Of a stretch of 64,000 bases of DNA, positions 20,031 to 61,729 are shown piece after piece. Below the pieces are notes generated by a model. It ran no database searches. It worked only from the letters and a program-made list of their open reading frames with translations, and was not told the origin of the DNA. Each line of letters opens with the position of its first letter. Positions within the stretch are counted from its first letter, which is position 1. The position numbers were made by a program, and so were the translations under genes. This DNA comes from an uncultured Polyangiaceae bacterium (GTDB lineage Bacteria > Acidobacteriota > Thermoanaerobaculia > Multivoradales > JAHEKO01), in NCBI GenBank assembly GCA_964195975.1, contig CAXMQZ010000037.1:23721-87720 (forward strand), given 5' to 3'.

Positions 20031-20032
20031 GG

Positions 20033-22243: not shown

Positions 22244-22282
22244 ACGGCTGAATAGCCCGGGAGGTACGGTGGTTGTGGTGGA

Positions 22283-24738: not shown

Positions 24739-24787
24739 CTTGAGGCTTTGCCTCGAGAGCAAGTATTGCCCACAGGTTTCGAGAAGG

Positions 24788-26002: not shown

Positions 26003-26009
26003 CATTGCC

Positions 26010-41921: not shown

Positions 41922-41923
41922 GT

Positions 41924-44011: not shown

Positions 44012-44047
44012 GATGCGATCATTCCTGGCGATTGGAACAGGACGGGC

Positions 44048-45568: not shown

Positions 45569-45651
45569 CGCGGGGCGGCCTCTTGGGCTCGCTTTTCAGC
45601 TGCATGTAGGGGAGAAGTGTCGCTAGGCTCGATGCTCCCCATTCGAACCAC

Positions 45652-46629: not shown

Positions 46630-46689
46630 AGCTGTTCTTGAAAGATCCGATAGGTTTTGTAGACAATGCCACCCGCGACCCTGATTTCG

Positions 46690-47913
46690 CTAGATGACAC
46701 CCAAGGACTTCCCGACGCGGTCGAAGGCGAACAGGATCTCTTCGATGTCGTCGTGGCTATGTCTGGCAGTAATGCTCGTCCGGACAATACACTCACCGTC
46801 GGGCACGCCTGGTGGTACTGCAGGCGACGTGAAGATCCCCTCGTCCCACAGCGCTTGCCAGAAGCGAAATGTCTTTGATTCCTCGCCTATCAGAACCGGC
46901 ACAATCGGGGTCTCGGAACCGAGGGTGTCGAAACCCAGTTCATGCATGCTTTTGCGGTAGAACTTGACATTCTGCTGTAGCTTTTCGCGTCGCCAGGTCT
47001 CTTTTTGAATTAATTCGAGGGCCTTGGTAGTGGCAGCGATCTGCATTCCGGGGAGCGCAGCCGTAAACATGAAGGGTCGCGCGACGCAGCGAACATAGCC
47101 CACGATATCGGTGTCTCCGCCGATAAACCCTCCTACCGAGCCGAATGCCTTGGAGAAGGTGCCCACGACGAGGTCTACACCCTGTTCCTGACCAAGATGC
47201 TCCGCAGTGCCACGACCTGCCTTGCCAAGGACTCCGGTTCCGTGTGCATCGTCGACTAGAAGGCCAGCATCGTACCGCTCGGCCAGCTCTACGAGTCGAT
47301 CCAACGGCGCGATGTGACCGCTCATGGAGAAGACACCATCGGTGACGATGAGCCGCCCACCGGGGCGATCGGAGTCCTTCTCGAGGAGGTGCGCGAGCTG
47401 GTCTATGTCGTTGTGTCGATATTTTCGGATCTTCGAGAATGAGAGTCTCGAGCCGTCGTAAAGACTGGCATGATTCTCACGATCAAAGTAGAGAATATCC
47501 TTTCGACCTCCGAGGGCGCTCAAGGCGCTCAGGCAGCCTTGAAATCCGGTGCTGAAGGTGAGAACACTCTCGACCTGAAGAAACTCGGCCAACTGTTCTT
47601 CTAGACGGTCATGCAACACCAGGGTTCCGGTGAGAAACCGTGAGCCGGTACAGCTCGTGCCATAGCGATCGAGAGCGCGGCGTGCGGCGGCCTTGACTCT
47701 CTCATCGCAAGCCAGGCCAAGATAGTCGTTGGAGCATGCAACAAGCTTCTCCTCTCCTTCGACCATCCATCGAACACCAGCATTGGTTTCGACTTGGCGA
47801 AAGTAGGGTTTGAAACCGGCCGCGGCAAGGTCTGCCAAGCGGACGTACTGCTGTGCTTTCTCGAACACGGCCTTGGGCCGTCTCGAGTCGTCGACTGTCT
47901 CAGGAATCACCAT
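46690..47913 (-). CDS. Alpha-oxoamine synthase family PLP enzyme, serine-palmitoyltransferase-like
   Basis: 407 aa. The PLP-lysine region GTFSKAFGSVGGFIGG is FSK...GGF as in SPT, unlike GTLGKA of BioF/Kbl. Confidence 0.7.
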   Translation of the reverse strand: MVIPETVDDSRRPKAVFEKAQQYVRLADLAAAGFKPYFRQVETNAGVRWMVEGEEKLVACSNDYLGLACDERVKAAARRALDRYGTSCTGSRFLTGTLVLHDRLEEQLAEFLQVESVLTFSTGFQGCLSALSALGGRKDILYFDRENHASLYDGSRLSFSKIRKYRHNDIDQLAHLLEKDSDRPGGRLIVTDGVFSMSGHIAPLDRLVELAERYDAGLLVDDAHGTGVLGKAGRGTAEHLGQEQGVDLVVGTFSKAFGSVGGFIGGDTDIVGYVRCVARPFMFTAALPGMQIAATTKALELIQKETWRREKLQQNVKFYRKSMHELGFDTLGSETPIVPVLIGEESKTFRFWQALWDEGIFTSPAVPPGVPDGECIVRTSITARHSHDDIEEILFAFDRVGKSLGVI

Positions 47914-47961
47914 TGGACACCACCCTTGTTCTATGTTTTCACTAATAAACGTCGGGAGAGA

Positions 47962-48585
47962 CTAGCTGTCAGCCTCCAGTGCGTCGATTCGATTCCTGAG
48001 ACGCTCGATGACAGTTTCTACCGACGAGACTCTCAACATTCTCGCAAATTGTTTTCGATAATTCTTAATCGTATCCACTCCATCCACAACGTAGTTGGTG
48101 ATCACCCAACTATCTTCGGATGGAATCAAATAGTAGTCGAGCTCAATGTCATCCTCACCATAGCGCGCGATCGTTCGCACAGTTGCTGTCTCGCCATCGA
48201 TATCCTCGCCTACGTACTCAAAACTATCGGCGCGATACCTTCCAAGTTTTCTTACCGACGAGACTCGAAGAAGCTCCCTGAAGACCTCTTTGAAGGTCTC
48301 GCAATCATCGCCAGCGGCAGGATCACAGAGACCGTCGATCGCCTCATTCGCAATGGTCGAAAAAGAGGTCATCTGATCCATAACATCGAAAACCTGTTCG
48401 TTCACGTCCGAGTCGGCTCTGCCGGAGTCTTTCGAATAGAGATCCAGGATCTCATCGTTCGACTCTCGAATTACCTGTAATGGTCCTTCTTGGGCAACAG
48501 CCGGAGAAATTGAGACCAACAGGAGAGTTACCGTGGCGGCATACCGCAACAGATCTACAATTTTAGCTGATTTCGACCGTTTCAT
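47962..48585 (-). CDS. Secreted hypothetical protein, possibly MlaC/Ttg2D-like lipid-binding periplasmic protein
   Basis: Signal peptide MKRSKSAKIVDLLRYAATVTLLLVSISPAVAQ. About 200 aa of mixed alpha/beta composition. Context only; no diagnostic motif. Confidence 0.35.
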   Translation of the reverse strand: MKRSKSAKIVDLLRYAATVTLLLVSISPAVAQEGPLQVIRESNDEILDLYSKDSGRADSDVNEQVFDVMDQMTSFSTIANEAIDGLCDPAAGDDCETFKEVFRELLRVSSVRKLGRYRADSFEYVGEDIDGETATVRTIARYGEDDIELDYYLIPSEDSWVITNYVVDGVDTIKNYRKQFARMLRVSSVETVIERLRNRIDALEADS

Positions 48586-49981
48586 GATCAATCCACTCCA
48601 GGTAGAGCTCAATGCGCCCCAATGTCAACGCTATGCGGGCCAGGGCGAGCTGATACTGAGCTTCTTGCTCGATGACTATCGCACCGAGCTCGTAGTATTG
48701 GCCGTAGGCGTCTACCAGCCGGTCGACGCTACCAAGACCGAGGTCCCAATTATCACCGCTTAGTCTCAGCCAGCGTTTTGCCGCCTTCTTGGATCTCTTG
48801 GCAGCATCGAGTAAATCTGAGAGAGCCTTTGCTTCCGCATAGGCTCGGGTGACCTCGATAATCAGTCGATCTTCGAGAACCGACAGTTGCTCGATGGCTT
48901 CCTGCCGCTCGACAGATGATTGGCTGATGGCCAGTCGGTGATCGGCAAACTTGAGGTTCCACCGAAGACCCAAGAAACCACCGATTGTCCGCAGGTTGAA
49001 TGGATCCAGAATGAAAGGATTTCTGATATCGGTTCGGTTTGGAGCGCGAGCGTAGGCCCCACCCAAAGCGAGAAAGATGTCGGGCCACCTGGACGCCTCG
49101 GCTAGCGCCAATTTACTATCGAGTGCGCCGAGGCCGGCACGGGCTTGTTGGATCGGCGGACTCGAATCCATTGCCATTGTGATTAGTGAGTCCAACATGT
49201 CCTCGTCTGGTAGCCCCGGTGTCCCCGCAGGAGCGAAGCTATCCGAATCGAGCTTGCCCCAGTCGAGCAGGACCTCCAACGATGCACCCGCAATCTCCTG
49301 ATTCTTGACACTCTGTCTGCCCGCGGCTCTAATCCCGTACTCGAAGCTCTGCACTTCGAATAGGCGTGTGTCATCTACGTCGGAGTCGGGGTCATTCGCA
49401 GCTCGCTCGACCTCCTCGAGCAATCTCTCGTAGTCCTTTTGCAAATCCTCGGCCAGATTGACACCACGATTTGCCGATTCAAACCCCCAAAACGCCTGCA
49501 CGACTTGGAATCCGAGCTTCGCAGCTGTGAAATCTCTACCGAACTCCCGTACGAGAACACCCTGCTCGGCCGCGGCTCGAGCGGAGGCGATCTTTCCAAA
49601 AGTCGTAAGCGGCTGGGCGATCCTAAGGTCGAATCGATAAAATACCCCCAGATTGTTGAGGTCTTCGTTGGAGTCCGGTGACTCGAAGATGTTTCCTTTT
49701 GCTTGCGGGACCAAACCCGTCTTGAAGTCGAGATCGATACTGGGTAGTTTTGTGTTCTTGACTTCCTTGACGTCGAGCTCGGCACGCTGCACTTTGTAGC
49801 GCTCGGCCTGAACGACTGGATGGGTCGCAAGGGCGTGTTCGACGGCTTCGCGTAGGGTATGGCGTGCGGAGTCGTCAACCGCGTCGGTCGTCTGGCTGTG
49901 GGTCACTTCGGGGATTAAAAGGCACAAGAACAGTACTGTCCACGGTAGCGACCGCGGGCTGTTTGACAATGAATTGTGCAC
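48563..49981 (-). CDS. TolC-family outer-membrane efflux channel
   Basis: 472 aa. Signal peptide plus an internally duplicated helical/beta structure. The N-terminal ...LREAVEHALATHPVVQAERYKVQRAELDVKEVK is the typical OEP start. Confidence 0.75.
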   Translation of the reverse strand: MHNSLSNSPRSLPWTVLFLCLLIPEVTHSQTTDAVDDSARHTLREAVEHALATHPVVQAERYKVQRAELDVKEVKNTKLPSIDLDFKTGLVPQAKGNIFESPDSNEDLNNLGVFYRFDLRIAQPLTTFGKIASARAAAEQGVLVREFGRDFTAAKLGFQVVQAFWGFESANRGVNLAEDLQKDYERLLEEVERAANDPDSDVDDTRLFEVQSFEYGIRAAGRQSVKNQEIAGASLEVLLDWGKLDSDSFAPAGTPGLPDEDMLDSLITMAMDSSPPIQQARAGLGALDSKLALAEASRWPDIFLALGGAYARAPNRTDIRNPFILDPFNLRTIGGFLGLRWNLKFADHRLAISQSSVERQEAIEQLSVLEDRLIIEVTRAYAEAKALSDLLDAAKRSKKAAKRWLRLSGDNWDLGLGSVDRLVDAYGQYYELGAIVIEQEAQYQLALARIALTLGRIELYLEWIDHETVEIS

Positions 49982-50080
49982 TCTTAGGACGGACCCTGGA
50001 CTTAGTTCAACACTTGGAGTCGAGCGGGGTGGCTCAGATCTTCTACGAGCGGGACGGCGTTCCAGCTTCGCGCGATCGGA

Positions 50081-50764
50081 TCACCGTGTGGTCCGTACTC
50101 TTCGTTCCCTGGAGATACGGGTTCCAAACGCCATGTCCCAGATGACGCTGCTGACACCGAACCCGCGGTCGGGATCATGGTAATGGTGCACCACATGGTG
50201 TTCTTGGAGACGCTTCCAGATAGGGTGGCGAAGCGGCGCATGATAAACGGCGTAATGGATCATGTCGTAGGCTAGATAGCCGACCAGAAACCCGGCTGAT
50301 GCAGCATAAAAGACACCACCATTTCCGAGGGTCAGCCGAAATAGCAGGTAGAAAGGAATCACCAGAATCACTGCCAGGAGCGGTGGCATCACAAGCCGTT
50401 TCTGATCGTTTGGGTAGTCGTGGTGAATACCGTGTAGCAGGAAGTGCCACCTTTTCCCCAGATCGCTCGAGGGTTCGTAGTGAAATACGAACCGGTGAAG
50501 CAAGTATTCGGACAAGGTCCAAAAGAAGACGCCACCCGTAAAGAAGAGAAGCAGCTGCGCGGGCTGGTTGCCTGAAAATTGTGCGGCTTTATACAGACAA
50601 AAGCCGACTATCGGAACCCAAAAAATCAGAGGGTAGGACCAGTGGACGTATGACTGAGCGTCGAGCGTTGGGTTTTTGAAGAGTCGGATCGACTCCTTCG
50701 CGTTTGAAACATACATTTTGGACACTTGGATCTCACCTCCGCGGAGACCGGCGCATCCCTCCAC
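50081..50764 (-). CDS. Fatty-acid hydroxylase superfamily (sterol desaturase/FA2H-like di-iron membrane enzyme)
   Basis: Four His boxes: HRFVFHY, HGIHHDYP, HYAVYH, HHVVHHYH. Confidence 0.8.
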   Translation of the reverse strand: MEGCAGLRGGEIQVSKMYVSNAKESIRLFKNPTLDAQSYVHWSYPLIFWVPIVGFCLYKAAQFSGNQPAQLLLFFTGGVFFWTLSEYLLHRFVFHYEPSSDLGKRWHFLLHGIHHDYPNDQKRLVMPPLLAVILVIPFYLLFRLTLGNGGVFYAASAGFLVGYLAYDMIHYAVYHAPLRHPIWKRLQEHHVVHHYHDPDRGFGVSSVIWDMAFGTRISRERRVRTTR

Positions 50765-50841
50765 AAACGCGCCCTACTTTGCCGTCTTATGCCTGGACAA
50801 AACGGCTGACAACGTCGAAGTATACTGTACTCGATGAGAGG

Positions 50842-51813
50842 CGAACCGTGTTAGAGATCCTGACCCGGCTCAAAGCGGACCTGCAGCGTGTAGGGAAGCC
50901 TCGAGAGGTTGAAGGTGTTCTGGATCGCTTTCTCATCCGACCTTGCGGGTATGTAATAGCGCGATGGCTGACGCCGAGTTGGGTAAGCCCCAATTTTCTG
51001 TCGTTGTTGGCCTTAGCCTTCGGATGGCTCACCGCTTACTGTCTCTTTGAAACGGCCAGATTGGGAAACCTTCCCGTCTACTCCGGGCTTGCCGCTCTGT
51101 CGATGGTACTTCACTCTGCTTTCGACAGCGCCGACGGTCAGCTGGCCCGTGCTAGAGGGACGACCAGTGAGTTTGGCCGCATACTCGATGGGATATGTGA
51201 CTATCTCAGTTTTGCAGCTATCTATCTGGCTATCGGTCTCGGTCTGGGAGTCAGAGCAGGAACGGGAATGACTCCCTTCGTTCTTTCAGCGGTGGCGGCG
51301 GGTCTATCGCATGGCCTTCAGTGCGCTGTGGTCGAGAATCAACGCAATCTGTACCGACACTACGTACATGGCGCCGAGCTTCCCTTCGACGCTTCAGAGC
51401 CCGAACCAGGTGCGCAGATCGAGAGCGAGTTGGGCTTCCTACAACTCATACACGGGGCCTACTCCAAGCTTCAGATGGTTTTTGGGGGCTCGAGTCTTCG
51501 CTTGTGGCGCAAGGTCGACGGCTGGCAGCAGAGCCATTCTAGCGACTCGGATCGAATCGTTGGCCTGATAGTTGCTAATAACTTGAAGCGATTGCCTTTG
51601 TGGGCCCTGCTGGCGCCAAATTCTCACAAAGTAGGGATGATCGTCGGAGCTTTTATTCCAGTAGGAAGCAGTACGGTTTTCGGAGAACTGGGTCTGTTTT
51701 GGTACTTTCTCTATGTCGTTGTAGGTCTGAATCTACTGATGATCGTAATGATTTTCACCCAATCATTGGTAGATCGCCGAACCTGGGTTGCGCTAATGGA
51801 AGATTCCCACTGA
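50842..51813 (+). CDS. CDP-alcohol phosphatidyltransferase family protein; start uncertain (ORF opens at 50704, overlapping the hydroxylase; GTG near 50842 with GAGAGG upstream)
   Basis: Signature D-x2-DG-x2-AR-x8-G-x3-D-x3-D as DSADGQLARARGTTSEFGRILDGICD. Confidence 0.75.
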   Translation, partial: RTVLEILTRLKADLQRVGKPREVEGVLDRFLIRPCGYVIARWLTPSWVSPNFLSLLALAFGWLTAYCLFETARLGNLPVYSGLAALSMVLHSAFDSADGQLARARGTTSEFGRILDGICDYLSFAAIYLAIGLGLGVRAGTGMTPFVLSAVAAGLSHGLQCAVVENQRNLYRHYVHGAELPFDASEPEPGAQIESELGFLQLIHGAYSKLQMVFGGSSLRLWRKVDGWQQSHSSDSDRIVGLIVANNLKRLPLWALLAPNSHKVGMIVGAFIPVGSSTVFGELGLFWYFLYVVVGLNLLMIVMIFTQSLVDRRTWVALMEDSH

Positions 51814-51814
51814 A

Positions 51815-53152
51815 GTGCTCGGGCGCGATGGCTCGACTAGCCGGAACAAGTCTCGGACGATGAGATCAATCGTCACTGTTACAACTCCCCGTGCCTTCGA
51901 CGAGCTCGGCGGACTCATGTTGTGGCAACGTGTGATCAGGACTCTGGGACATCTAGGCTCAGAGTCGGTTCAACTGATCATCGTTCCCGAATTGTCTGAG
52001 TTGGGATTGAAAGAGAGTGTGTGGCAAGAGTCGTATCTCGATGATGGCGATATCCAGGCCGTTGCGGGGAAGTCTCTGACTTCGGTCGATCTCCTCGAGA
52101 TGGCCGGGGAGGGCGAGGGGCCGATTCTTGTCGTGCCCGGAGAATCCGTTTTTGACCCGCGGATCCTCGAATTCTGTTTGAACCAGACCGCTCCGGTTGC
52201 CTGCGTCGACCGAGATCCGCCGGCAGAGTGGCGAGCACTGGTGGAAAACGCCCCACGGGTCGGCGATGCTCGATTCTGTGGTCCCGTGGTAGTAACAGAT
52301 GAATGGCTGAATCGGTATCCAGGGGACTTTCCTGACGCTGTCGCAAAGACTATTGCGCATGGATCACTGCCGACAGTTGACGTCGACTCCTTGCCGACAA
52401 GAGCAGGGAATCTACGACGAGATGTCAGACCCTTTTGGTTCCCAGCGCCAGATTCCAAAGACAGAAGCTTGGCAAGGCGTCTGCTGTTGTCTTCGACTCA
52501 GAAGGGCTCACTCGACCTTCCTGCAATGGTTCATGCTCCGATTGAGAAGCTCGTGGCCTGGAGCCTGGCGGGGACCAAGATCACTCCCAACATGGTCACT
52601 GTTCTGACTACTCTGGTTGCCTGGGTTGCCACCGTCATGTTTATCCGGGGCCATCTTGTCACCGGTCTCGTACTTGCTCTGATGGTTGGAGTATTGGATG
52701 GTGTTGACGGCAAACTGGCGCGTCTACGATTCGAGTTCTCCAGATTCGGCGAGCTCGAGCACTGGCTGGATTTTCTGTACGAATGGTCGTGGTGGGTCGC
52801 GCTGGCCTACTACTTCTCGAGCTCTGGTCTGCTCCCACAAGCCTGGCGCGTTCTTGGACTGCTAGCCTTCTTCGAAGTTGTCGATGGCTTGGCCAAGGCG
52901 ATCAGTATTGTCTCGTTTGGGCGTCTCATCGACGAAATATCTCCGTTTGAAAGGATGGTGCGAATCTTTGGTGGTAGGCGTAACGTATATATTTGGCTCA
53001 TGGTTCTCGGAACGGTCTTGGGAAAGCCTGCAGCGGCCTTTGAGATTTTGCCAATCTGGCAGGGAGCTACCGCGATTCTTCACTGGATAAGACTCCCCTG
53101 GCTTTTTGCCAATTCTCGTAAAGAGCAGCGGATAGGTGGAATCACCGGATGA
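51815..53152 (+). CDS. Two-domain protein: N-terminal ~230-aa soluble domain (possibly degenerate nucleotidyltransferase-like) fused to a CDP-alcohol phosphatidyltransferase membrane domain
   Basis: C-terminal domain has LDGVDGKLARLRFEFSRFGELEHWLD (CDP-OH_P_transf-like). The N-terminal domain lacks a clear GxGTR motif. Confidence 0.6.
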   Translation: MLGRDGSTSRNKSRTMRSIVTVTTPRAFDELGGLMLWQRVIRTLGHLGSESVQLIIVPELSELGLKESVWQESYLDDGDIQAVAGKSLTSVDLLEMAGEGEGPILVVPGESVFDPRILEFCLNQTAPVACVDRDPPAEWRALVENAPRVGDARFCGPVVVTDEWLNRYPGDFPDAVAKTIAHGSLPTVDVDSLPTRAGNLRRDVRPFWFPAPDSKDRSLARRLLLSSTQKGSLDLPAMVHAPIEKLVAWSLAGTKITPNMVTVLTTLVAWVATVMFIRGHLVTGLVLALMVGVLDGVDGKLARLRFEFSRFGELEHWLDFLYEWSWWVALAYYFSSSGLLPQAWRVLGLLAFFEVVDGLAKAISIVSFGRLIDEISPFERMVRIFGGRRNVYIWLMVLGTVLGKPAAAFEILPIWQGATAILHWIRLPWLFANSRKEQRIGGITG

Positions 53153-55563
53153 TGGACCGGTTGTGGCGGATTGTCTCGCGGGTCTCAGCAGAACATACCT
53201 GGTGGGTGCTGGGCATGACCCTGTTGGTCAGTATTCCTGCCTTCTTGTCGGTAAAGAATATCGGGCTCGACACCAACCTGAAGCGACTTCTTCCTGAGCA
53301 TGCGCCGTCGGTCCGGTGGAGCCGCGAGCTCGAGGAGTCGGTCGGAGACGGGGGGTACTTCGCGATCCTAATAGAGGGAGATGATCGTCAAGTATTGATC
53401 ACTACGATCGAAGAAATAGCCGACAGGGTAGGGGATCTCCCCTCGATTCAATCAGTTGATTATCGAAACCCCAAAGAGTTTGTCGACGAGTATCGCTACA
53501 CCCTGCTACCCAACTCACTTCTCGAGGAGCTCAGAGACGAGATCGAGCGGTGGGAGATCGAAGTCAATCCGTTTCTACTCGACCTGGATGCCCCCGAGAC
53601 CTCCGATACCCAAGCTGATGACGACGAGGAGGATGCCGATCGCTTGGAGAAATTCCTGACTCACTACGTGCATATGGACGAATATCAGGCCGACTCGGAG
53701 GGTCGTATTTTTGGCATGATCATTAGACCCAAGGAAGGTATCTCGAATCTAGCCAGCCTGAGAGAGCTGTACGGTGAGCTTCAGAGGATCACTGCCGAAT
53801 CGGTCGAGGGGAAGGGGTTGTGGTGGGGCATCGGAGGTAATCTTCGTACGCGGGTCGACGAGTTCGATCTGATCGTCTCGGATCTAGGAAGGGCCGGATG
53901 GGTCTCGGCAATAGCGATTCTGCTGACTTTGGCGATCAGCTTTCGGTCCTTCAAAGTCCTGCCAGTTATCCTCTACCCTTTGGCGATGGGTCTTCTGTGG
54001 TCGTTCTGCTTTGTCCCGACTTTGGTGGGAGATCTGAATACTATTACCGCGTTTCTCTTGTTGGTGTTGTTTGGCATGGGCGTGGACTATGCAATCCACC
54101 TCGTGAGCCGATTTGAGGTCGAATTGACCTCGCGGTCTCCCGAAGAGGCGCTAGAGGAGACCCTTCGATCGACAGGTAGATCGGTAGCGACCTCCGGTGC
54201 GACTACGGCCATAGCTCTACTGATTCTGTCGGTGTCCGATTTTAGGGGTTTTTCGGACTTTGGCATCATCGGCGGAACCTCGATCGGAGTCATCACATTG
54301 GCAATGCTTTTTGTATGGCCGGCCTGTGCCGTCGCCGGCGTCAAGCTCGGACTCGTCTCGGCGGGAAAGCCCTCGACCGAGGGATGGGCTCTACCGCTCC
54401 CAGGGCCTATCGTAATAGTTGGGGTGTTAACGCTTGTTGGCCTATCGATATTCGCCGCTCGGGAGTACCTTCAGTTCGACTACGACTTCACCAAATTAAG
54501 CGCCACTATCCCGGGCAAGGAAGAGATCAACGAGAAACAGAGAAAGGTCTATCCTGCCACCTCTGCACCTGCGGCTCTCTATGTAGCCAGAGACCTCGAA
54601 GCTCTCGATCAGATTATGGCTTTGCTGGAGAAAAAGCGCGACGAAGCAGCCGATTCCCCGACTATTGGCACGATCAACAGCATCAGAAATTTCGCTCCGA
54701 GCCGTTCGCAGTTCGACCGTCGACTCGAGACTATCGCCGAGATGCGGGATTCACTCCAAGGTCGGTGGGTAAGAAAGATCGACGATCCTGATCGAAAGGA
54801 GATCATTGAAGACTTTCTGGCATTCGAGCCACCGAACAACCCCCCACGCATCGACGAGGTTCCAGTATCGATCAGCCGAGAGCTGATGGCTCGCGATGGC
54901 TCTGGAGCGTTGGTGACCGTCGACACCGATGGGCGCAGTCGGGATGGCAGGATGGCCATGGCGTTTACCAGGGACCTTTATGAGATCGACCTTCCTGAGG
55001 GCGTGCGGGGACCCACAGGTGAAAAACTCGTACTTGCGGAGATACTTTTCCTGGTCACCGGCGAGAGTGCCTGGATTGTGGCTCTCACTTTTGGAGGGAT
55101 TTTTATCCTGGTCCTCCTGGATCGGAGATCGGTCATCCAGACAGTCTGGGTCTTGGTGCCGCTGGCGGCTGGCATTCTTCTGACTCTGGGAGCCATGGTA
55201 GTACTCGGCTGGAAGCTGAATTTCTTCAATCTGGTCGTACTGCCAACGATGTTAGGAGTTGGGGTGGATCATGGTGTGCACTACTACCGGCGATGGCGGG
55301 AGGTCGACGGCGACACCCGTTCGACCCACTACGAGTTGTTTGGACCCATCACGATCGCGTCGGTAACCACGATGATGGGTTATCTCGGCATGGTGCTCGC
55401 ACACCACCCAGGCTTGCGCTCGATCGGACTGCTCGCGCTTGTCGGATTGACGGCTACCTGGTTTACAGCTCTGGTGCTGCTACCGGGTCTTCTTTGCTGG
55501 CAGAGGGGTTGTATGCCAGGTCTTCTTCGATTGCAGAAGAGTCCTAGGACTGAAAGTTCGTAA
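53149..55563 (+). CDS. MMPL/RND-superfamily exporter (HpnN/MmpL-like lipid transporter)
   Basis: 804 aa with two 6-TM bundles, each preceded by a large periplasmic domain. 4-nt overlap with the upstream gene. Confidence 0.8.
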   Translation: MMDRLWRIVSRVSAEHTWWVLGMTLLVSIPAFLSVKNIGLDTNLKRLLPEHAPSVRWSRELEESVGDGGYFAILIEGDDRQVLITTIEEIADRVGDLPSIQSVDYRNPKEFVDEYRYTLLPNSLLEELRDEIERWEIEVNPFLLDLDAPETSDTQADDDEEDADRLEKFLTHYVHMDEYQADSEGRIFGMIIRPKEGISNLASLRELYGELQRITAESVEGKGLWWGIGGNLRTRVDEFDLIVSDLGRAGWVSAIAILLTLAISFRSFKVLPVILYPLAMGLLWSFCFVPTLVGDLNTITAFLLLVLFGMGVDYAIHLVSRFEVELTSRSPEEALEETLRSTGRSVATSGATTAIALLILSVSDFRGFSDFGIIGGTSIGVITLAMLFVWPACAVAGVKLGLVSAGKPSTEGWALPLPGPIVIVGVLTLVGLSIFAAREYLQFDYDFTKLSATIPGKEEINEKQRKVYPATSAPAALYVARDLEALDQIMALLEKKRDEAADSPTIGTINSIRNFAPSRSQFDRRLETIAEMRDSLQGRWVRKIDDPDRKEIIEDFLAFEPPNNPPRIDEVPVSISRELMARDGSGALVTVDTDGRSRDGRMAMAFTRDLYEIDLPEGVRGPTGEKLVLAEILFLVTGESAWIVALTFGGIFILVLLDRRSVIQTVWVLVPLAAGILLTLGAMVVLGWKLNFFNLVVLPTMLGVGVDHGVHYYRRWREVDGDTRSTHYELFGPITIASVTTMMGYLGMVLAHHPGLRSIGLLALVGLTATWFTALVLLPGLLCWQRGCMPGLLRLQKSPRTESS

Positions 55564-55603
55564 CGAGATTCTCTGTTCGGGACGGGGACCTGGCACAGTT
55601 CGA

Positions 55604-56554
55604 CTATTCGGATTCTTGCCGTCGAAAGGAATCCGTAGCTGATGCCCTCCGCACGCACGAGATCGTGCACCGGTCTTCGCAGCCCTTTCGAGTATAGAAC
55701 TCTCTCAGGCGATGATCTTTGGTGTACTCGCTCAACGGGATACCAGGATCATTTCGTCGCTGACTGCAGTATGAGACGATCCCGTCCTCATCTACATAGA
55801 GATACCGGGCGCCAGCGCGGCATTTCCAGGGAGCCGAACCGTCTCTAATGATCTTCGACTCCCAGCCTTCACCAACGTGGTGGAGAAGGCTCTTACGGCT
55901 TCGCCCATGAATCTCTTGATAGAAATCCGCCAGACTGTCGCCGAGAAGACCGGGGTCGAGTTGGCCCTCCTGGTCATGCATCAGGCCGACGGTCATATAA
56001 AAGCCCATTTCTTGAACACCCTGCACGACCTCACGTGTTTCCTCGAGGTTGCTGGATCCGAGCACGGCGTTGACGGTCACCTTGAACTTGGCATGATCGC
56101 GCAGCAGGGCCAGACGCTCCTTTAGACTCGACCAGGATTTTTCGGAAACTTCGTTGGGCTCCAGGTTGTCGATTGAGACCTGTAGGATCGTGAGCCCGGA
56201 GTCGTTGAGTCGCTCGATCCAGCGTGAAGTCAAGGTGTATCCGTTCGTGATCGACGTACAAACCATCCCGCGCGATACTGCGTAGCGGATCAATTCGTCC
56301 AACATTGGATGGAGAAGAGGCTCACCGCCCGTCAGGGTCAATACAACTGTGCCTGCATCGGCAATTTGATCGATGCGCTCGATCAAGTCTCTGGTGTCGA
56401 CTGGCGGAGAAACGTGGTCAAACTCGTTACAGTACCCGCAGGCAAGATTGCAGCGACGGGTGACAACTAGTTGGACAAGGACAGGTTTTGAAGGCGAAAG
56501 TATTGCCGCGCCCGCTCGGGCCAGGGAGCGAATAGGTGGGTTGGGTAGAAGCAT
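55604..56554 (-). CDS. Radical SAM enzyme with C-terminal Cys-rich (twitch/SPASM-like) region, function unknown
   Basis: CNLACGYC (CxxxCxxC) and GGEPLL. C-terminal cysteines ...WKCRAGARY...SYCSQ...KGCEDRCTISC. Confidence 0.75.
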   Translation of the reverse strand: MLLPNPPIRSLARAGAAILSPSKPVLVQLVVTRRCNLACGYCNEFDHVSPPVDTRDLIERIDQIADAGTVVLTLTGGEPLLHPMLDELIRYAVSRGMVCTSITNGYTLTSRWIERLNDSGLTILQVSIDNLEPNEVSEKSWSSLKERLALLRDHAKFKVTVNAVLGSSNLEETREVVQGVQEMGFYMTVGLMHDQEGQLDPGLLGDSLADFYQEIHGRSRKSLLHHVGEGWESKIIRDGSAPWKCRAGARYLYVDEDGIVSYCSQRRNDPGIPLSEYTKDHRLREFYTRKGCEDRCTISCVRRASATDSFRRQESE

Positions 56555-56569
56555 CGGTGGTAGGTCTGG

Positions 56570-57343
56570 CTAGTCTGAGGTCGATCGAACGGATAGCTCG
56601 GTCAACAGATCGCGGGCGTCGGATGTTGCCAGGCGAAGATCGTCCGGTGTGTCGATATCGATCCACATGCGTGGTCCAGGGAGAGTCGCAGCCAGGACCA
56701 ATCCCTTGGAAGCGCAGTGCCGAACACCGTCGGAGAGTGAGAACCGGGAATTTGCCTGTGCGGTCTCGAGACCCTCTGCAAGAGTTTTGGTGCAATAGAA
56801 AAGCCCGGAATCACCGGCATCCCACGACGTAAGCTCTTTACCGATGGCGACTACGTGACCGGCTTCGGTTTGTACTTTTGTCAGATCATCGAGATCGACG
56901 ATCGATCCCGGAAAGGGATCCACGGCCAGAGTGATCTTGTCTGCGTCCATGTCAAAATCGATCAGGTACCTGATCATCTGGGGAGAGAACAAGTGGTCAG
57001 CCATAGAAAGTAGGAACGGTCGCGGCGAGAAGGATCGAGCGAGGGCCAAAGCCGTGACACCGTTTCCCTTCTCCCAACCCTGGACGGTCACGAACTCGAT
57101 ATCGATCCCAAGTCGTTCAGCAATATCCAAGTAGTTATTACGCACCATGTCGGCTTTGAACCCGAGCCCGACTCGGAACTCGCGCACTCCGGCGGCGTAG
57201 AATGCATTCAGACTCCACTCCGCAATGGTTGCCCCATGAAGTGGCATGCATGGCTTCGGTAGTTTCTCGTCCACTCCTCGCAGCCGGGTGCCTTCACCGG
57301 CAGCGAGAATGGAGACGGGTAGGGGTAGAGCAGTCTCCATCAC
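56570..57343 (-). CDS. Nucleotidyltransferase (sugar/alcohol-phosphate cytidylyl-/guanylyltransferase fold); candidate CTP:inositol-1-phosphate cytidylyltransferase
   Basis: ILAAGEGTRL (GxGTRL) motif near the N-terminus. 257 aa. Adjacent to inositol-3-phosphate synthase. Confidence 0.65.
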   Translation of the reverse strand: MMETALPLPVSILAAGEGTRLRGVDEKLPKPCMPLHGATIAEWSLNAFYAAGVREFRVGLGFKADMVRNNYLDIAERLGIDIEFVTVQGWEKGNGVTALALARSFSPRPFLLSMADHLFSPQMIRYLIDFDMDADKITLAVDPFPGSIVDLDDLTKVQTEAGHVVAIGKELTSWDAGDSGLFYCTKTLAEGLETAQANSRFSLSDGVRHCASKGLVLAATLPGPRMWIDIDTPDDLRLATSDARDLLTELSVRSTSD

Positions 57344-57445
57344 GCGATTACCTGCCCTTCCAGCTTTTCGCTGGTGGTGGCTTGGGCCTTCGGCGATTCA
57401 AAATCGGTCTCGCCTATTAGCCCGCGCGGTCGTGAATCATGCGCG

Positions 57446-58591
57446 CTAGGACTCTTTGACGTCTACGAGAGGTGTGGCCTGCACTGCTGTTTCGATGACA
57501 TCATCCGCCAGAAAATCCTCCAGAGCTCGTTTTGCTTCAGAGTCTGAGATTTGCTGGGGCGGATGCTTCATCGTGTAAGCAGACGCTGCGATGAGAGGAC
57601 CCGATATCCCTCTGTCCAGAGCCACCTTGGCGCAGCGGATAGCGTCGACTACCACACCCGCTGAGTTAGGTGAGTCTTCGACACTGAGCCTGGCCTCCAA
57701 GTGCATTGGAACGCCGCCAAATCCTCTTCCCTCGACCCGGATAAAACAGACTTTGTTGTCCTTTTGCCAGGGAACATAGTCCGATGGGCCGATGTGGATT
57801 TGATCGTCGGGGAGCCGGATTGCAAGCTCCGCCTGAACCGACTCGGTCTTGGATTCCTTCTTGCTTCGCAACCGAGTCCTCTCGAGCATATTGAGGAAGT
57901 CGGTGTTGCCGCCGGTGTTGAGCTGATAGGTACGATCGATCCGCACTCCTCGATCTCCCATCATCTTCGCCAGGGTACGATGCATGATAGTCGCACCGAA
58001 CTGGCTCTTGATGTCATCACCAACGATTGGAATACCCTTTTCGCTAAACCGGGCGGCGTACTCTGGATCCGAGGCGATAAAGACCGGAACACAGTTGACC
58101 ATGGCAACGCCGGCCTCCAGACATGCTTCGGCATAGGCCCGAACGGCCTGCTCTGAGCCCACCGGCAAATACGAGATGAGAACCTCGGCGCCTGACTCCT
58201 TCAGGGCTTTGGCTACATCTACGGGTTCGGCATCTGCCACCCGAAAGGCCTGGTTCTCCGGATAGTTCGCCATGTGGTCTGCGACGCCATCCAAGACTGG
58301 GCCCATCTGGACCATGATTTCCTGCGAATTGACGGATGGCTCGAAGACCGTCGTGCAATTCGGCTCAGCGAATACGGCTTGATTGATGGATCGACCAACC
58401 TTTCTTCGATCAACATCGAAGGCAGCAACAGGTCGAATACTCCCGACGCTGTAGGAACCAATTACTTCACGCATCAGTCCGATCGGTTCTTCGTTGTTGT
58501 TCTTTTTGTAGTGGTCGATTCCCTGCAGGAGGGCGCTAGCGCAGTTTCCAACACCAGCGACTGCAATACGTACGTCGTTCTTCATCTTCAA
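57446..58591 (-). CDS. ino1: myo-Inositol-1-phosphate (inositol-3-phosphate) synthase, archaeal/bacterial type
   Basis: NAD-binding IAVAGVGNCASALLQG, ...NGSPQNTF-like core ...YQLNTGGNTDFLNML.... 381 aa. Confidence 0.85.
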   Translation of the reverse strand: MKMKNDVRIAVAGVGNCASALLQGIDHYKKNNNEEPIGLMREVIGSYSVGSIRPVAAFDVDRRKVGRSINQAVFAEPNCTTVFEPSVNSQEIMVQMGPVLDGVADHMANYPENQAFRVADAEPVDVAKALKESGAEVLISYLPVGSEQAVRAYAEACLEAGVAMVNCVPVFIASDPEYAARFSEKGIPIVGDDIKSQFGATIMHRTLAKMMGDRGVRIDRTYQLNTGGNTDFLNMLERTRLRSKKESKTESVQAELAIRLPDDQIHIGPSDYVPWQKDNKVCFIRVEGRGFGGVPMHLEARLSVEDSPNSAGVVVDAIRCAKVALDRGISGPLIAASAYTMKHPPQQISDSEAKRALEDFLADDVIETAVQATPLVDVKES

Positions 58592-58741
58592 GTCACCTGT
58601 TGTCGATTTCTATCGGAGTGGCCGGCCCCCACGACCACCGGCTTTGCCCTCAGGAGCCCAGTTGGAATCCAGAGTGCGACGGTAAAGACTACCACGGAGT
58701 GAGCTCTTCGCGCTGGGAATGTCGCTTTCTCCACATTGCGA

Positions 58742-61729
58742 CTAGAACTTGGGCTTCAATATGATTCCTTCGCCATGGCGTCCATCGAGAGCGATCGTCA
58801 GCGGCGAATTCAGCCTTAGATGTTTGAGGTGAGTCGTCTCGGTTTCTGCTTGGCACTCATCGAGCCAGCTCCAGTCGAGAAACTGACCGTTTTTTTCACT
58901 AGATTCTTCCGCACCTGGTGGCAAAGTGAGGTATCCGATCCTTAAGGACGAAATGTTTTGAAAGAAATGAGTTCCCTGAGACGGCTCGACATCGTATCCC
59001 TCTGGTGATGCTTCTACGATTGCGCCGACATTTGAGATCTGTCCCCACTGTACCGGAATTCCGAGCCATGGATCTGCTGTCCCCCAGCGTCCGGGACCAA
59101 TCAGCAAATAACGACGGTTTTCGGTTTCGAGCATCTTGTTGATATGGCCTACTTGCGCCGCGATGTCCTTGTTCTGTGCAGCTTCCCAGTTTTCGCGTCG
59201 GACATAGACGATATCCTCGATCTCGTCCTCGATCCCATGCCCTAGGCTCGAGTGTGAAACACAGAGCTCCTGACCTGGGTCATAGGACAGCTGCGCGATC
59301 TCCTTTTCGGCAGACCGGCTTACAAAGGGTCGTACCTGCAGAAGATAGAGTACGGGGCGCTTCCTGGGGTGGCCCGGAAGCACAGGTTTGCCCCAATCAC
59401 CCATGTCGCAAGCGAACTCGATCTCGACTGGAGATCCTAGTCCCAGTTGCGAGATCATGAGGAGGTGCTCGAGAGCGTCCGCCAATGGGATTGCCCCGTG
59501 GCGCAGGATGTTGTTGAAGGTGACGACTCGGGGCCCAGAGTGCTGCAGGTCGTCACGGATGGTCTGATCTTCGGGGCTGTACACGCTTCCAACAACCTGG
59601 AGAGTCCCGTCATCTTCAGCCTGGGCCAGGTCGTGGAACTTGATGTTGGCATAAGGATCGGTCAGCGGTAGACAACAAGTCGAATCAACATCGAGGGCGT
59701 AGAACCCCCGTTGGGTGGTGTCGAGAAACGTCTTTGAAGTGGCGTCCTGAGCCAGAACTCGTGGATATCTAGGGCTGAACCGCAAGGCAAGTCCACCGTC
59801 GACAACCAACCGACCGAGCCCCAGTCCGACATGGGCTACACCATCTTCCGGACTCTGAGGCCCTATGGGGTAGAAATTGTGAGACTGTGCGACGCCGGCG
59901 AAATGCGGATAGAAAAGAGAACCATGCTGCTGGCCGACAAGACGCTGGACAATGACGGCCATTTTCTCTTCCTCGAGCCGGTGACCCGTGCTGGCCAGAT
60001 ACGCATTGGCGTTGCCATAAAACGTCGATGCGTAGACGAGCTTGATTGCACTGCAAAGCTCAGCCAAGCGCTGCTCCGGATCTCGGCTCTGATTTGGGAT
60101 CATTACGGTTGTGTAGATCCCCGCGAGCGGCTGATGCATCGAGTCTTCGAGAAGGCTTGATGACCGTATCGCAAGCGGCCCACCCATGTGGTGGGCCACA
60201 TAAGTGAGATCGTTTCTCAGGTCATCGTCGAGTCGACCTGCAACAAACCGCTTAGCGATCTCAAGATCATCATCGCTCGCGTAGGCGAATTCCCTGAGGT
60301 TGTTGTTCTCGACGAATTCATCGAAGAATTCAGTGGTGATGATTACGCTTTTGGGTATGTGTATTTCGAGACCCTCGATCTCTGCAGAGCCGCTTTTGGC
60401 GAGGGTCATGTTCAGAAACGCGAGTCCGCGAGCCTTGCCGCCGATCGAGCCTTGGCCGATTCTCGAGATGATGTCGCGATCGAACTCTTTCCGGTTGAAG
60501 TCCGCGATGACTCGTCGGTAGGTGCTGTGGTAGGACTCTTTGAGCGCGTTGGTCAGATACTTACGCAAATCCTCGGTTGAGCCGAACTCGGACGCCTGAC
60601 GTGGCCTCAGACGTTCGGCCAGTTCGAATTCACTACGGGCCATCAGCCAAATTGAGAAATGATTGTGGGCAGCGTGATACTTGAGACACTCCTCTGGAAC
60701 GACCGCCAGATGGCGTTCCAAGTCACGGACATCCTTGGCGCGAGCAATCTCCTCGCTGCCATCCGATGAACGGAAGACAAAATCGCCAAATCCGAGGTTA
60801 CTCCTGAAGAAACTGCGGATGTCGGCTAGCAGGCTCTCGGAATTCTTGTCGACAAAGATAGCGCCGAGCTCCTTTGCTCGGGCGGCATTGCTCTTCTCGG
60901 CTGACTGGAGCAGGATGGGTAGATCCCGATCATGCTCTCGCGTAAAGCGGGCGAAATCGAGACCCCCGACAGGGTCGAGTTTTCCCTCGCGCGGAATTCG
61001 AATATCGCTTACGATGCCCAGAATATTTCGACGGTAGCGTTTGAACAGTTGTACACCCTGCTCATACGAAGTGGCGTGAAGAATCTTTGGACGCGATCGC
61101 ATGTACATTCGACGATGAAGCTCGTTGACACCTTCGGCGTAGAGCGAGTGAGACTGAGCCATCAACTCCTTGTACAGCATCCCCAGAAGAGCGGAGTAGT
61201 ACCTGGGCGAGTCTTCCAGAACCAGAATGACCCGGACATGACCATGTTGAATATCGTGATCGACGTTTTGTCGATCTTCAAAATACTTGATGATTGCCAC
61301 CAAGATCTGGGAGTCTCCAGACCACAGAAAGACTCCATCGACAGCGTCTCGATCGAGAGCACTGTGTGCCAGGTCGAGCTCGCGACGGTCGAGTGCCAAC
61401 AACACGACGGGTCGCCCCGGGCGGAGCTCCTTGATCTTGCGGGCAAGTGCATTGACCCCCATGTCGATCACACTCGTCATAACCAGAATCAGATCGAACC
61501 TCTGGTCATCGAGCCTTTTCAAGGCTTGCTCACCCGAGGGCACGTGGGTCACCCGAGGAGGGCCGGACAGGCTTACATCGCGATACTCGAAGAAGACCTG
61601 TTCTGTGAGTTGCCCGTCTTCCTCGAGAATAAAGGCATCGTACGGCGAAGACACGAGCAGCACCTCACGCACTCGAAAGGGCATGAGGTCGTGAAACCGG
61701 CGGTGTTGAAAAGTGCGTTGTAGCGGCAT
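58742..61729 (-). CDS. Multidomain protein: pseudo-receiver + receiver (REC) + PEP-synthase/PPDK-type N-terminal ATP-grasp (PPDK_N) domain + degenerate swivel-like C-terminal region
   Basis: REC2: ILVLEDS...IVSDIRIP...PILLQSAE. PPDK_N: GGKARGLAFL, AIRSSSLLEDS, MAVIVQRLV, GVAHVGLGLG. The C-terminal LLIGPGRWGTADPWLGIPVQWG resembles the PEP-utilising mobile domain but lacks the His. Confidence 0.65.
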   Translation of the reverse strand: MPLQRTFQHRRFHDLMPFRVREVLLVSSPYDAFILEEDGQLTEQVFFEYRDVSLSGPPRVTHVPSGEQALKRLDDQRFDLILVMTSVIDMGVNALARKIKELRPGRPVVLLALDRRELDLAHSALDRDAVDGVFLWSGDSQILVAIIKYFEDRQNVDHDIQHGHVRVILVLEDSPRYYSALLGMLYKELMAQSHSLYAEGVNELHRRMYMRSRPKILHATSYEQGVQLFKRYRRNILGIVSDIRIPREGKLDPVGGLDFARFTREHDRDLPILLQSAEKSNAARAKELGAIFVDKNSESLLADIRSFFRSNLGFGDFVFRSSDGSEEIARAKDVRDLERHLAVVPEECLKYHAAHNHFSIWLMARSEFELAERLRPRQASEFGSTEDLRKYLTNALKESYHSTYRRVIADFNRKEFDRDIISRIGQGSIGGKARGLAFLNMTLAKSGSAEIEGLEIHIPKSVIITTEFFDEFVENNNLREFAYASDDDLEIAKRFVAGRLDDDLRNDLTYVAHHMGGPLAIRSSSLLEDSMHQPLAGIYTTVMIPNQSRDPEQRLAELCSAIKLVYASTFYGNANAYLASTGHRLEEEKMAVIVQRLVGQQHGSLFYPHFAGVAQSHNFYPIGPQSPEDGVAHVGLGLGRLVVDGGLALRFSPRYPRVLAQDATSKTFLDTTQRGFYALDVDSTCCLPLTDPYANIKFHDLAQAEDDGTLQVVGSVYSPEDQTIRDDLQHSGPRVVTFNNILRHGAIPLADALEHLLMISQLGLGSPVEIEFACDMGDWGKPVLPGHPRKRPVLYLLQVRPFVSRSAEKEIAQLSYDPGQELCVSHSSLGHGIEDEIEDIVYVRRENWEAAQNKDIAAQVGHINKMLETENRRYLLIGPGRWGTADPWLGIPVQWGQISNVGAIVEASPEGYDVEPSQGTHFFQNISSLRIGYLTLPPGAEESSEKNGQFLDWSWLDECQAETETTHLKHLRLNSPLTIALDGRHGEGIILKPKF

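Follow-up and report, generated by a model that had tools for sequence, protein, structure and literature searches.

A candidate sphingolipid synthesis and export cluster with a putative CDP-inositol-dependent head-group pathway in an uncultured Acidobacteriota bacterium

The stretch of DNA analyzed here, hereafter the window, comprises 64,000 nucleotides from an uncultured Polyangiaceae bacterium (placed by GTDB in the Acidobacteriota, Thermoanaerobaculia; assembly GCA_964195975.1, contig CAXMQZ010000037.1, positions 23,721 to 87,720), and it carries a unit of about 14.5 kb (44048-58591) that is probably a cluster for sphingolipid synthesis and export, head-group half included. The reading favored here, with moderate confidence, is a CDP-inositol-dependent, Kennedy-type pathway that adds a head group to a sphingolipid, coupled to export of the product to the outer membrane. 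In such a pathway, a myo-inositol-3-phosphate synthase (MIPS) would convert glucose-6-phosphate to L-myo-inositol-1-phosphate, from which a stand-alone IPCT-like cytidylyltransferase (NTP) would form CDP-inositol. Two CDP-alcohol phosphotransferases, PT1 and PT2, would then pass phospho-inositol from CDP-inositol to lipid hydroxyl acceptors, with release of CMP. A ceramide-type lipid, formed by the products of the Spt-like, CerR-like and hydroxylase genes, is the most likely acceptor and would yield inositol-phosphoceramide. A radical-SAM enzyme, rSAM-A, may act as a tailoring enzyme on the cyclitol, on CDP-cyclitol or perhaps on the completed lipid, and a flippase, an MMPL pump, an MlaC-like carrier and a TolC-like channel would carry the lipid to the outer membrane. 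From gene identities, folds, motifs and synteny we infer the substrates, the acceptor and the product, as well as the order of the steps and the role in transport.

To our knowledge, the phosphatidylinositol phosphate (PIP) synthase route is the only characterized bacterial route to inositol lipids. In the literature searched, we found neither a test of the CDP-inositol route put forward for Bacteroides nor an explanation of Myxococcus-type ceramide phosphoinositol synthesis. The cluster provides a concrete and testable gene set for a Kennedy-type inositol-phosphosphingolipid pathway, with homologues that metagenome-assembled genomes from soil lineages (Ca. Udaeobacter and other Chthoniobacterales, for example) commonly carry. 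Its flippase, MMPL, MlaC-like and TolC-like genes are candidate bacterial sphingolipid transporters to the outer membrane, and rSAM-A is a strongly conserved, still unexplained component.

Organization and Extent of the Cluster

The head-group half of the cluster is formed by two convergent operons, PT1-PT2-MMPL on the plus strand and MIPS-NTP-rSAM-A on the minus strand, whose stops at 55563 and 55604 lie 40 nt apart. The MMPL start overlaps the PT2 stop by 4 nt (ATGA), while MIPS, NTP and rSAM-A are co-directional, with intergenic gaps of 102 and 15 nt. Leftward of PT1 lies a seven-gene minus-strand block (hydroxylase, TolC-like, MlaC/HpnM-like, Spt-like, reductase, flippase and sodium:solute symporter), so placed that PT1 is divergently paired with the sphingolipid-type hydroxylase gene and adjoins the Spt operon. 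A preliminary description of this DNA had already named MIPS, the nucleotidyltransferase, the two CDP-alcohol phosphotransferases and the MMPL exporter, arranged in two facing operons with a 4-nt coupling of the exporter. The open reading frame (ORF) listing and the Pfam and NCBIfam scans recovered all five gene types at or near the places it gave, as well as the facing arrangement and the overlap. Its interval of 7.7 kb proved too short, overlooking the sphingolipid and transport genes at 44048-50764, and its gene content was incomplete even inside that interval, where the conserved radical-SAM gene at 55604-56554, a core member, was missed. Its PT1 start at 50842 falls on a CGA codon; GTG 50848 is the likelier start and gives a protein of 321 aa, to be compared with the 319-aa orthologue in the related locus L001. 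For PT2, ATG 51860 is the likely start; the resulting protein of 430 aa agrees in length with that of fragment P0001, to which it is 99% identical.

Transcription units in the window were defined by spacing and strand only. A promoter consensus scan of 41500-59000 returned 9 promoter-like sites against a shuffle mean of 7.1, i.e., shuffle level, and a terminator consensus scan of the same interval gave zero terminator-like matches at an operon boundary. A look-up of the exact PT2 sequence gave no match, and the database matches to the window itself are 99%-identical fragments only (P0001 and P0121). Among named relatives, the nearest are metagenome-assembled genomes of Acidobacteriota and Thermoanaerobaculia, at 44-68% identity.

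Conservation of the PT2 Neighborhood

Relatives of PT2 were sought in species-representative genomes. The scan returned 184 of them, and 77 distinct loci were kept and analyzed together with L001 and L002, making 79 loci that belong mainly to Verrucomicrobiota (Chthoniobacterales, Ca. Udaeobacter), with some Acidobacteriota. Neighbors were counted within 10 kb in the 43 loci that have at least 6 kb on either side of PT2. A nucleotidyltransferase and a KDS-reductase-like SDR each accompany PT2 in 39 of these 43 loci, a bCerS-like 370-aa GNAT acyltransferase in 37, a PT1-like transferase in 36, Spt in 33, rSAM-A in 28, the hydroxylase in 25, the paralogous rSAM-B in 24 and MIPS in 10, while nine loci are devoid of any radical-SAM gene. 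Since a single-copy gene is estimated to lie within 10 kb on either side of a given gene by chance in well under 1% of genomes, these associations go far beyond chance. The whole gene order of the window recurs in L001, with 56-88% amino-acid identity, and partly in L086, L003, L004 and L031. This recurrence, together with the synteny of PT2 in dozens of loci, indicates that the arrangement is not fortuitous. The PT2 family is of modest size: of 1.84 billion representatives, clustered at 50% identity, 171 clusters belong to it at E <= 1e-30.

Inositol Activation

The MIPS gene (57446-58591, minus strand) encodes an enzyme of the Ino1 type (PF01658, 123 bits for a cut-off of 27), which aligns over its full length (residues 5-361) with Mycobacterium tuberculosis Ino1 (1GR0) at 408 bits. 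It scores 442 bits against the actinobacterial equivalog TIGR03450, under the 638-bit cut-off of that model.

NTP (56570-57343, minus strand, 257 aa) carries the motifs ILAAGEGTRL and PKP, and its top three PDB matches are all IPCTs (2xme, 66 bits; 4mnd, 64 bits; 4jd0, 56 bits), the next match reaching 35 bits. It aligns end to end with the A. fulgidus IPCT, the IPCT-DIPPS fusion and the T. maritima IMPCT, and it has the EKGNG, (M)xDH and DxG(F/L)F motifs in common with the solved IPCTs. Against NF041135, the Thermococcales IPCT/DIPPS model, it scores 94 bits over the IPCT half, with the next model at 64 bits and the mannose-1-phosphate guanylyltransferase model at 35 bits. The operon link to MIPS suggests that NTP acts on inositol phosphate.

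This link recurs outside the window. MIPS, NTP and rSAM-A form one tight co-directional unit in L001 as well, and MIPS is adjacent to the cluster or 3-8 kb away in ten Verrucomicrobial loci. Locus L088 (1463-11014), found via rSAM-A, combines a flippase, a 437-aa MIPS, a GT4 glycosyltransferase, MMPL, NTP, a 318-aa CDP-alcohol transferase and rSAM-A; its MIPS (PF07994 and PF01658) is of a different type from that of the window, and a MIPS of the L088 type lies about 10 kb from rSAM-A in L087. MIPS was thus recruited to the module at least twice, an argument for inositol phosphate being a true substrate in some or all of the family. The absence of MIPS near most PT2 loci and the presence in L080 of an APH-family kinase and a second nucleotidyltransferase alongside the module make other head groups likely in other members. 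As a separate observation, the GT4 gene of L088 hints at glycosylated inositol lipids.

The Two CDP-Alcohol Phosphotransferases

PT1 (50848-51813, plus strand, 321 aa) is a choline/ethanolamine-phosphotransferase-like enzyme (PF01066, 49.5 bits) with a canonical DxxDGxxAR-x8-GxxxDxxxD motif (DSADGQLAR...GRILDGICD), and its best PDB sequence matches are CHPT1 (39 bits) and CEPT1 (37 bits). CHPT1 and CEPT1 use a soluble CDP-alcohol as donor and a lipid, diacylglycerol (DAG), as acceptor.

In PT2 (51860-53152, plus strand), residues 1 to about 200 form a degenerate domain of the nucleotidyltransferase fold, which is fused to a domain of the CDP-alcohol phosphotransferase family (PF01066, 34.8 bits). 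An AF2 model built from a 77-sequence alignment (pLDDT 89) retrieved the IPCT-DIPPS structure 4MND first in Foldseek (E 1.8e-14), followed by AF2299 (TM 0.79), with both domains covered, and the N-terminal domain alone matched MurU, RmlA and IPCT. The consensus of this domain reads ILADxPxALxELCGIS, with the glycine-rich GxGTR loop of about 12 residues absent in all 77 sequences; the PKP lysine is missing as well, and only the PGDxVFDxR motif is kept. Judged by these motifs, it is very unlikely that the N-terminal domain is an active cytidylyltransferase, and the existence of a separate NTP gene of the active type fits the loss of this signature. A comparison of the PT2-family profile with the stand-alone NTP profile was not significant (E 0.27), so that the homology of the N-terminal domain is drawn from the structure search, the alignment having served only to place the missing loop. 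On the strength of the model, PT2 is best described as a natural fusion of the IPCT-DIPPS type whose cytidylyltransferase half would have degenerated, the activity presumably being supplied by the separate gene.

The transferase motif of the PT2 family is an invariant DGxDGKxAR-x8-GxxEHWxDxxxE, the first half of which is exact in PT2 (DGVDGKLAR), and HMMER aligns E300 and D304 to both signature aspartates with a one-residue deletion. Both transferases reach 48-50 bits against inositol-type synthases. They remain far under the cut-offs of the specific models, with 39 and 38 bits for PT1 and PT2 against PIPSynth (cut-off 170), 17 and 21 bits against the BT1523-type model (cut-off 350) and, for PT2, 45.5 bits against the NF041135 IPCT/DIPPS equivalog (cut-off 580). 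Of the housekeeping models, PT1 obtains 18 bits against pgsA (cut-off 109) and 26 bits against pssA (cut-off 107), and PT2 matched neither.

In three Verrucomicrobial loci (L046, L061 and L078), PT2 is present as two paralogues, either adjacent or separated by a few kb. Tannerella forsythia is a producer of inositol phosphoceramides, and its genome holds a distant PT1 homologue (P0319) in an operon (L085, 6745-9736) with a CTP_transf_like cytidylyltransferase, an SDR and an acyltransferase gene. This homologue was set aside as evidence for inositol, the operon having no MIPS; the operon may represent a Kennedy-type module through which the group makes its phosphoglycerol or phosphoethanolamine dihydroceramides.

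The Radical-SAM Enzyme rSAM-A

The rSAM-A gene (55604-56554, minus strand, 316 aa) begins 15 nt downstream of NTP. Its product is recognized as a twitch/SPASM-like radical-SAM enzyme by the CX3CX2C SAM motif, a C-terminal set of auxiliary-cluster cysteines and fold similarity to known members. Identity to BlsE, DesII, BtrN and viperin is only 16-21%, and no curated family was reached. The substrates of these four enzymes are sugars, cyclitols or cytidine nucleotides, and by analogy it is chemically plausible that rSAM-A tailors inositol phosphate or CDP-inositol.

The rSAM-A of the window shares 60-75% identity with its counterparts in metagenome-assembled genomes of Myxococcota, Vicinamibacterales, 'Deltaproteobacteria' and Eiseniibacteriota, and is therefore far better conserved than the transferases, which are 25-40% identical. 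Seven rSAM-A contexts from unrelated contigs were compared. A CDP-alcohol transferase is found within about 1.3 kb in five of them (L080, L081, L083, L088 and L090), an NTP transferase is nearby in four (L080, L081, L088 and L090), and two (L081 and L090) are canonical sphingolipid clusters. The nine PT2 loci that have no radical-SAM gene make the enzyme look accessory rather than obligatory for transfer. In the literature searched, no paper was found that connects a radical-SAM enzyme with CDP-inositol, with CDP-alcohol transferases or with inositol sphingolipids of bacteria.

The paralogue rSAM-B (L002, 11323-12342; L080, 8008-9045), which is absent from the window, is about 30% identical to rSAM-A and 60% identical between Verrucomicrobiota and Myxococcota. 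CarboxypepD_reg proteins adjoin four of the rSAM-A clusters (L081, 11177-13678; L090, 12560-15070; L083, 5049-5777; L087, 5474-6784), two of them fused to TonB-type beta-barrels. The carboxypeptidase-regulatory-like protein BT_1527 has been described beside both Bacteroides inositol clusters by Heaver et al. (PMC9246714).

Sphingolipid Genes and the Likely Acceptor

The bacterial ceramide core set comprises Spt, bCerS and CerR; in the window it is incomplete. The serine palmitoyltransferase-like (Spt-like) alpha-oxoamine synthase (46690-47913, minus strand) has NF047600 SerpalmtaseCFB as its best model (412 bits, under the 640 cut-off; BioF, 384 bits). The CerR-like candidate (45652-46629, minus strand) is a reductase of the NAD-dependent epimerase/dehydratase family (PF01370, 96 bits), 41% identical to the epimerase of the canonical Spt/ACP/acyl-ACP-synthetase/GNAT cluster in L081. 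They are accompanied by a fatty-acid hydroxylase of the sphingolipid type (50081-50764, minus strand; PF04116, 67 bits), for which ATG 50716 is the likely start, the homologue alignment beginning at 50713. The presence of these three genes in the unit makes a sphingolipid the most likely acceptor.

The third member of the core set, the bCerS-like acyltransferase, is represented by a 3′ remnant (46629-46694, minus strand). Merely 61 nt separate the Spt stop from the reductase start, and they encode the last 14-22 codons of a bCerS-like GNAT gene, ending in ...VYKTYRIFQEQL, which matches the C-terminus of a 368-aa protein in L001 (...HYKTYRIFQKKL). Three independent bCerS-like homologues (from L001, L002 and L081) have their best window match at this remnant, each aligning by its C-terminus, and a complete GNAT gene of about 370 aa occupies the equivalent position in L001, L003, L086 and L081. 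The assignment of this GNAT as a bCerS candidate follows from its membership in canonical Spt/ACP/acyl-ACP-synthetase/epimerase clusters, as in L081 and L090, where NTP/transferase modules occur with canonical Spt/ACP/ligase/GNAT/epimerase sets. No second bCerS-like copy was found within the 64-kb window, even at E = 50. The remnant may reflect a deletion in this lineage with the function supplied elsewhere, a different acceptor, or an assembly variant.

Transport Genes

The MMPL gene (53149-55563, plus strand) encodes an HAE3-type RND transporter resembling HpnN and BstA (PF03176, 112 bits), with 225 bits against the TIGR03480 HpnN model (cut-off 752), 163 bits against BstA and 128 bits against NF052374 (cut-off 1100); it is syntenic in L001, L004, L031 and L086. 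The Polysacc_synt flippase candidate of the Wzx/MOP type (44048-45568, minus strand; PF13440, PF01943) is 76% identical in L001, and a member of its family occurs in 27 of the 43 PT2 loci, as well as in L080, L088 and L090. An MlaC/HpnM-like periplasmic lipid-binding protein with an N-terminal hydrophobic segment (47962-48612, minus strand; PF05494, 79 bits; TIGR03481 HpnM, 41 bits) and a TolC-like outer-membrane efflux protein (48563-49981, minus strand; PF02321, two repeats) are both syntenic in L001, L003, L086 and L031. Together, the four genes would move lipid to the outer membrane. The transporters for bacterial sphingolipids have been explicitly described as unidentified (PMC11087976).

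A hopanoid role was considered and rejected: the HpnN-, HpnM-, HpnA- and HpnH-like matches all lie far under the respective cut-offs, and the window contains no squalene-hopene cyclase or other hopanoid genes.

Neighboring Genes

The last gene of the minus-strand block encodes a sodium:solute symporter (SSF, 695 aa; 41924-44011, minus strand) conserved in L001. The SSF family includes Na+/myo-inositol transporters, and it is conceivable that this protein takes up inositol. Directly upstream of MIPS, a 995-aa protein (58742-61729, minus strand) combines a response-regulator receiver with an ATP-grasp PPDK_N domain (PF00072, PF01326). It is conserved beside MIPS only in L001 (84% identity) and is possibly a regulator or kinase for the cluster, to which it is peripheral.

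A WS/DGAT wax-ester synthase/diacylglycerol acyltransferase gene (39263-40648, plus strand) just upstream of the cluster adds a further neutral-lipid function nearby. At 17090-28600, a co-directional run of minus-strand genes of no obvious common function encodes a second SSF symporter, a Trp-halogenase-like flavoprotein, a TonB-dependent receptor, a HemN-like radical-SAM protein, a PQQ-type beta-propeller, an Fe-alcohol dehydrogenase, an aldehyde-dehydrogenase-like protein and a short AMP-binding protein.

Proposed Pathway and Alternative Readings

The presence of two transferases suggests two sequential additions, in which PT2 might attach a further inositol phosphate to the one already in place, by analogy with DIPPS, which links two inositols, and with Caulobacter CpgA, which adds a second phosphoglycerate. 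Alternatively, PT1 and PT2 may use two different acceptors. Seen against these results, the ideas of the preliminary description have fared unevenly. The likeness of PT2 to IPCT/DIPPS enzymes holds for the architecture (Foldseek matches to 4MND and AF2299), and its bifunctionality was very probably lost with the GxGTR loop and the lysine. The CDP-inositol lipid route draws support from the IPCT-like NTP, MIPS and the Kennedy-type PT1, inositol itself being suggested by the adjacency of a MIPS that is found in 10 of the 43 loci. The enzymes that it had listed as competing identities, mannose-1-phosphate guanylyltransferase for NTP and PgsA or PssA for the transferases, score below the inositol-type models. 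It had called the acceptor unknown, which is incomplete in view of the Spt-like, CerR-like and hydroxylase genes, and the route rare in bacteria, when in fact it is widespread among the soil Verrucomicrobiota, Acidobacteriota and Myxococcota represented by metagenome-assembled genomes.

Several observations weigh against a CDP-inositol-dependent sphingolipid pathway. The second acidic motif of PT2 departs from the canonical GxxxDxxxD; the radical-SAM step is placed in the pathway from gene context, without an assigned chemistry; the likeness of NTP to IPCTs does not by itself fix its substrate, since Caulobacter CpgD, a CDP-glycerate synthase, also has the T. maritima IMPCT as nearest structural neighbor (PMC12275187); MIPS lies within 10 kb in just 10 of the 43 PT2 loci, so that the family overall may use other CDP-alcohols; L088 has no Spt within 10 kb, making a glycerolipid acceptor possible for the core module; and the bCerS-like gene is reduced to a stub of 14-22 codons, so that ceramide is perhaps not made from this locus. 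The last two points bear on a rather unlikely variant, in which the same CDP-inositol/Kennedy chemistry serves diacylglycerol or another glycerolipid, giving phosphatidylinositol without a PIP intermediate and inositol sphingolipid secondarily or not at all. It would agree with the use of DAG by the closest solved relatives of PT1 and with the proposal of DAG as first acceptor in B. vulgatus by Heaver et al. (PMC9246714). What speaks for a sphingolipid, however, is that Spt or the bCerS-like GNAT stands beside PT2 in 37 of the 43 loci, interleaved in one operon-like block, that PT1 in the window is paired with the hydroxylase next to the Spt operon, and that no HAD or PAP2 domain, which could move the head group from phosphatidylinositol to ceramide, is present in any scanned window ORF. 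The points on NTP and MIPS would be accommodated by a head group other than inositol, in which case NTP might activate glycerol phosphate, say, or the phosphoglycerate used by CpgD, with MIPS serving another product; the lack of MIPS within 10 kb in 33 of the 43 loci and the kinase and second nucleotidyltransferase of L080 point the same way. This is judged less probable again, given the tight one-strand spacing of MIPS, NTP and rSAM-A in the window and L001, the ten Verrucomicrobial loci with MIPS adjacent or within 3-8 kb, the non-orthologous MIPS embedded in L088 and the one about 10 kb from rSAM-A in L087, and the full-length alignment of NTP with the IPCTs that are its top three PDB matches.

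The stub could also mean that the cluster is decaying, the loss of the ceramide-synthase-like gene having broken the pathway and left the rest as a relic in the present genome; the close relatives L001 and L086, with an Spt 85-87% identical, have indeed kept the whole gene. This is improbable: in the other 13 cluster genes the ORFs are full-length and intact and the catalytic motifs conserved, and a second bCerS copy may lie outside the window or the stub be an assembly variant. Di-myo-inositol phosphate (DIP) is a compatible solute known from (hyper)thermophiles, and the three activities for DIP-phosphate are nominally present here. That MIPS, an IPCT and a DIPPS-like PT2 make this solute or a related phosphodiester, the lipid genes being unrelated, might be argued from the A. 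fulgidus IPCT-DIPPS as best structural match of PT2 and from the many PT2 homologues auto-annotated as IPCT/DIPPS. Such a role is nevertheless highly improbable, for PT2 scores far below the DIPPS equivalog cut-off, is translationally coupled to an MMPL lipid pump, co-occurs in most loci with Spt, GNAT, hydroxylase and desaturase genes and, in 36 of 43, with a second, lipid-type transferase (PT1-like); its carriers are soil Verrucomicrobiota and Acidobacteriota metagenome-assembled genomes rather than (hyper)thermophiles, and no inositol-phosphate phosphatase is found among the scanned window ORFs.

A CDP-inositol-dependent route to an exported inositol sphingolipid therefore remains the preferred reading. 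A more far-reaching version of it can be put forward only tentatively, namely that NTP, a short CPT-like transferase, a long transferase and rSAM-A constitute an undescribed pathway to a sphingolipid head group of possibly tandem cyclitol phosphates remodeled by the radical-SAM enzyme and exported by the clustered transporters. Under this speculative version, remodeling might be an oxidation, dehydration or epimerization, for instance, and the pathway would have a wide distribution across Verrucomicrobiota (Ca. Udaeobacter among them), Acidobacteriota and Myxococcota. The head group might then even be new to any organism, and the flippase, MMPL, MlaC-like and TolC-like proteins might be the missing transport route for bacterial sphingolipids.

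Comparison with Known Systems

The enzymes of the cluster are related to the archaeal and thermophile IPCT and IPCT-DIPPS proteins (AF0263, 4MND/2XME; T. maritima IMPCT, 4JD0): NTP is alike end to end, with GxGTR and PKP kept, and PT2 shows the same two-domain fold as IPCT-DIPPS and AF2299 (4O6M), a nucleotidyltransferase fold followed by a six-helix CDP-alcohol transferase domain, with MIPS nearby. Unlike in IPCT-DIPPS, the activities are split here, with a separate cytidylyltransferase gene and a PT2 N-terminal domain lacking the P-loop and the lysine, the PT2 motif is GxxEHWxDxxxE instead of GxxxDxxxD, and the context is one of lipid and sphingolipid genes in mesophilic bacteria rather than of solute synthesis in thermophiles. 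In the mycobacterial and B. thetaiotaomicron PIP-synthase route (PgsA1; BT_1523 and a PIP phosphatase), synthesis likewise starts with MIPS and uses a transferase of the CDP-alcohol family. That route employs CDP-DAG as donor, inositol phosphate as acceptor and a PIP phosphatase, whereas the present cluster encodes a head-group cytidylyltransferase instead. The export genes recall the HpnN/HpnM (hopanoid) and BstA (sterol) systems, in which an RND/MMPL pump and an MlaC-like carrier are likewise found with biosynthesis genes for outer-membrane lipids. They differ from them by their scores (225 vs. 752 and 41 vs. 160 bits) and by the addition of a TolC-like channel, and the window yielded neither hopanoid nor sterol genes.

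Among the ideas described, the closest is the 'alternative' cluster of Bacteroides vulgatus and Prevotella, composed of MIPS, an NTP transferase, a CDP-alcohol transferase and a HAD hydrolase, for which a Kennedy-like CDP-inositol route to inositol sphingolipids without a PIP intermediate has been proposed, and only proposed, by Heaver et al. in 2022, the hydrolase being assigned to the conversion of PI-DAG to PI-DHC (PMC9246714). The first three of these genes are also clustered here, the B. vulgatus genes (BVU_RS13095 and BVU_RS13105 for the NTP transferase and the CDP-alcohol transferase) having been compared by description only. The present cluster differs in lacking the HAD gene, in its additional second transferase with a degenerate nucleotidyltransferase domain, its radical-SAM gene and its MMPL/MlaC/TolC export set, and in belonging to other phyla.

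The closest experimentally supported analogue is the Caulobacter Cpg system, in which the cytidylyltransferase CpgD and the CDP-alcohol transferase CpgA build a sphingolipid head group (PMC12275187, PMC11324152). An IMPCT-like cytidylyltransferase and a CDP-alcohol transferase share a sphingolipid locus there as they do here and in L081 and L090, the Spt-like and CerR-like genes lying no more than 10 kb from NTP, PT1 and PT2, and the tandem phospho-head-group units of Caulobacter parallel the two transferases. In Caulobacter, phosphoglycerate forms the head group, and the first unit is added via the ceramide kinase CpgB and the CDS-like CpgC; among the scanned ORFs, neither a CpgB-like kinase nor a CpgC-like CDP-DAG-synthase domain is found in the cluster or in the rest of the window. 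Conversely, the Caulobacter system has no MIPS and no reported radical-SAM member, and the present cluster has both. Altogether, Kennedy-type addition of a head group from a CDP-alcohol is of a known kind, to which the present cluster adds the second transferase with its degenerate domain, rSAM-A and the export set.

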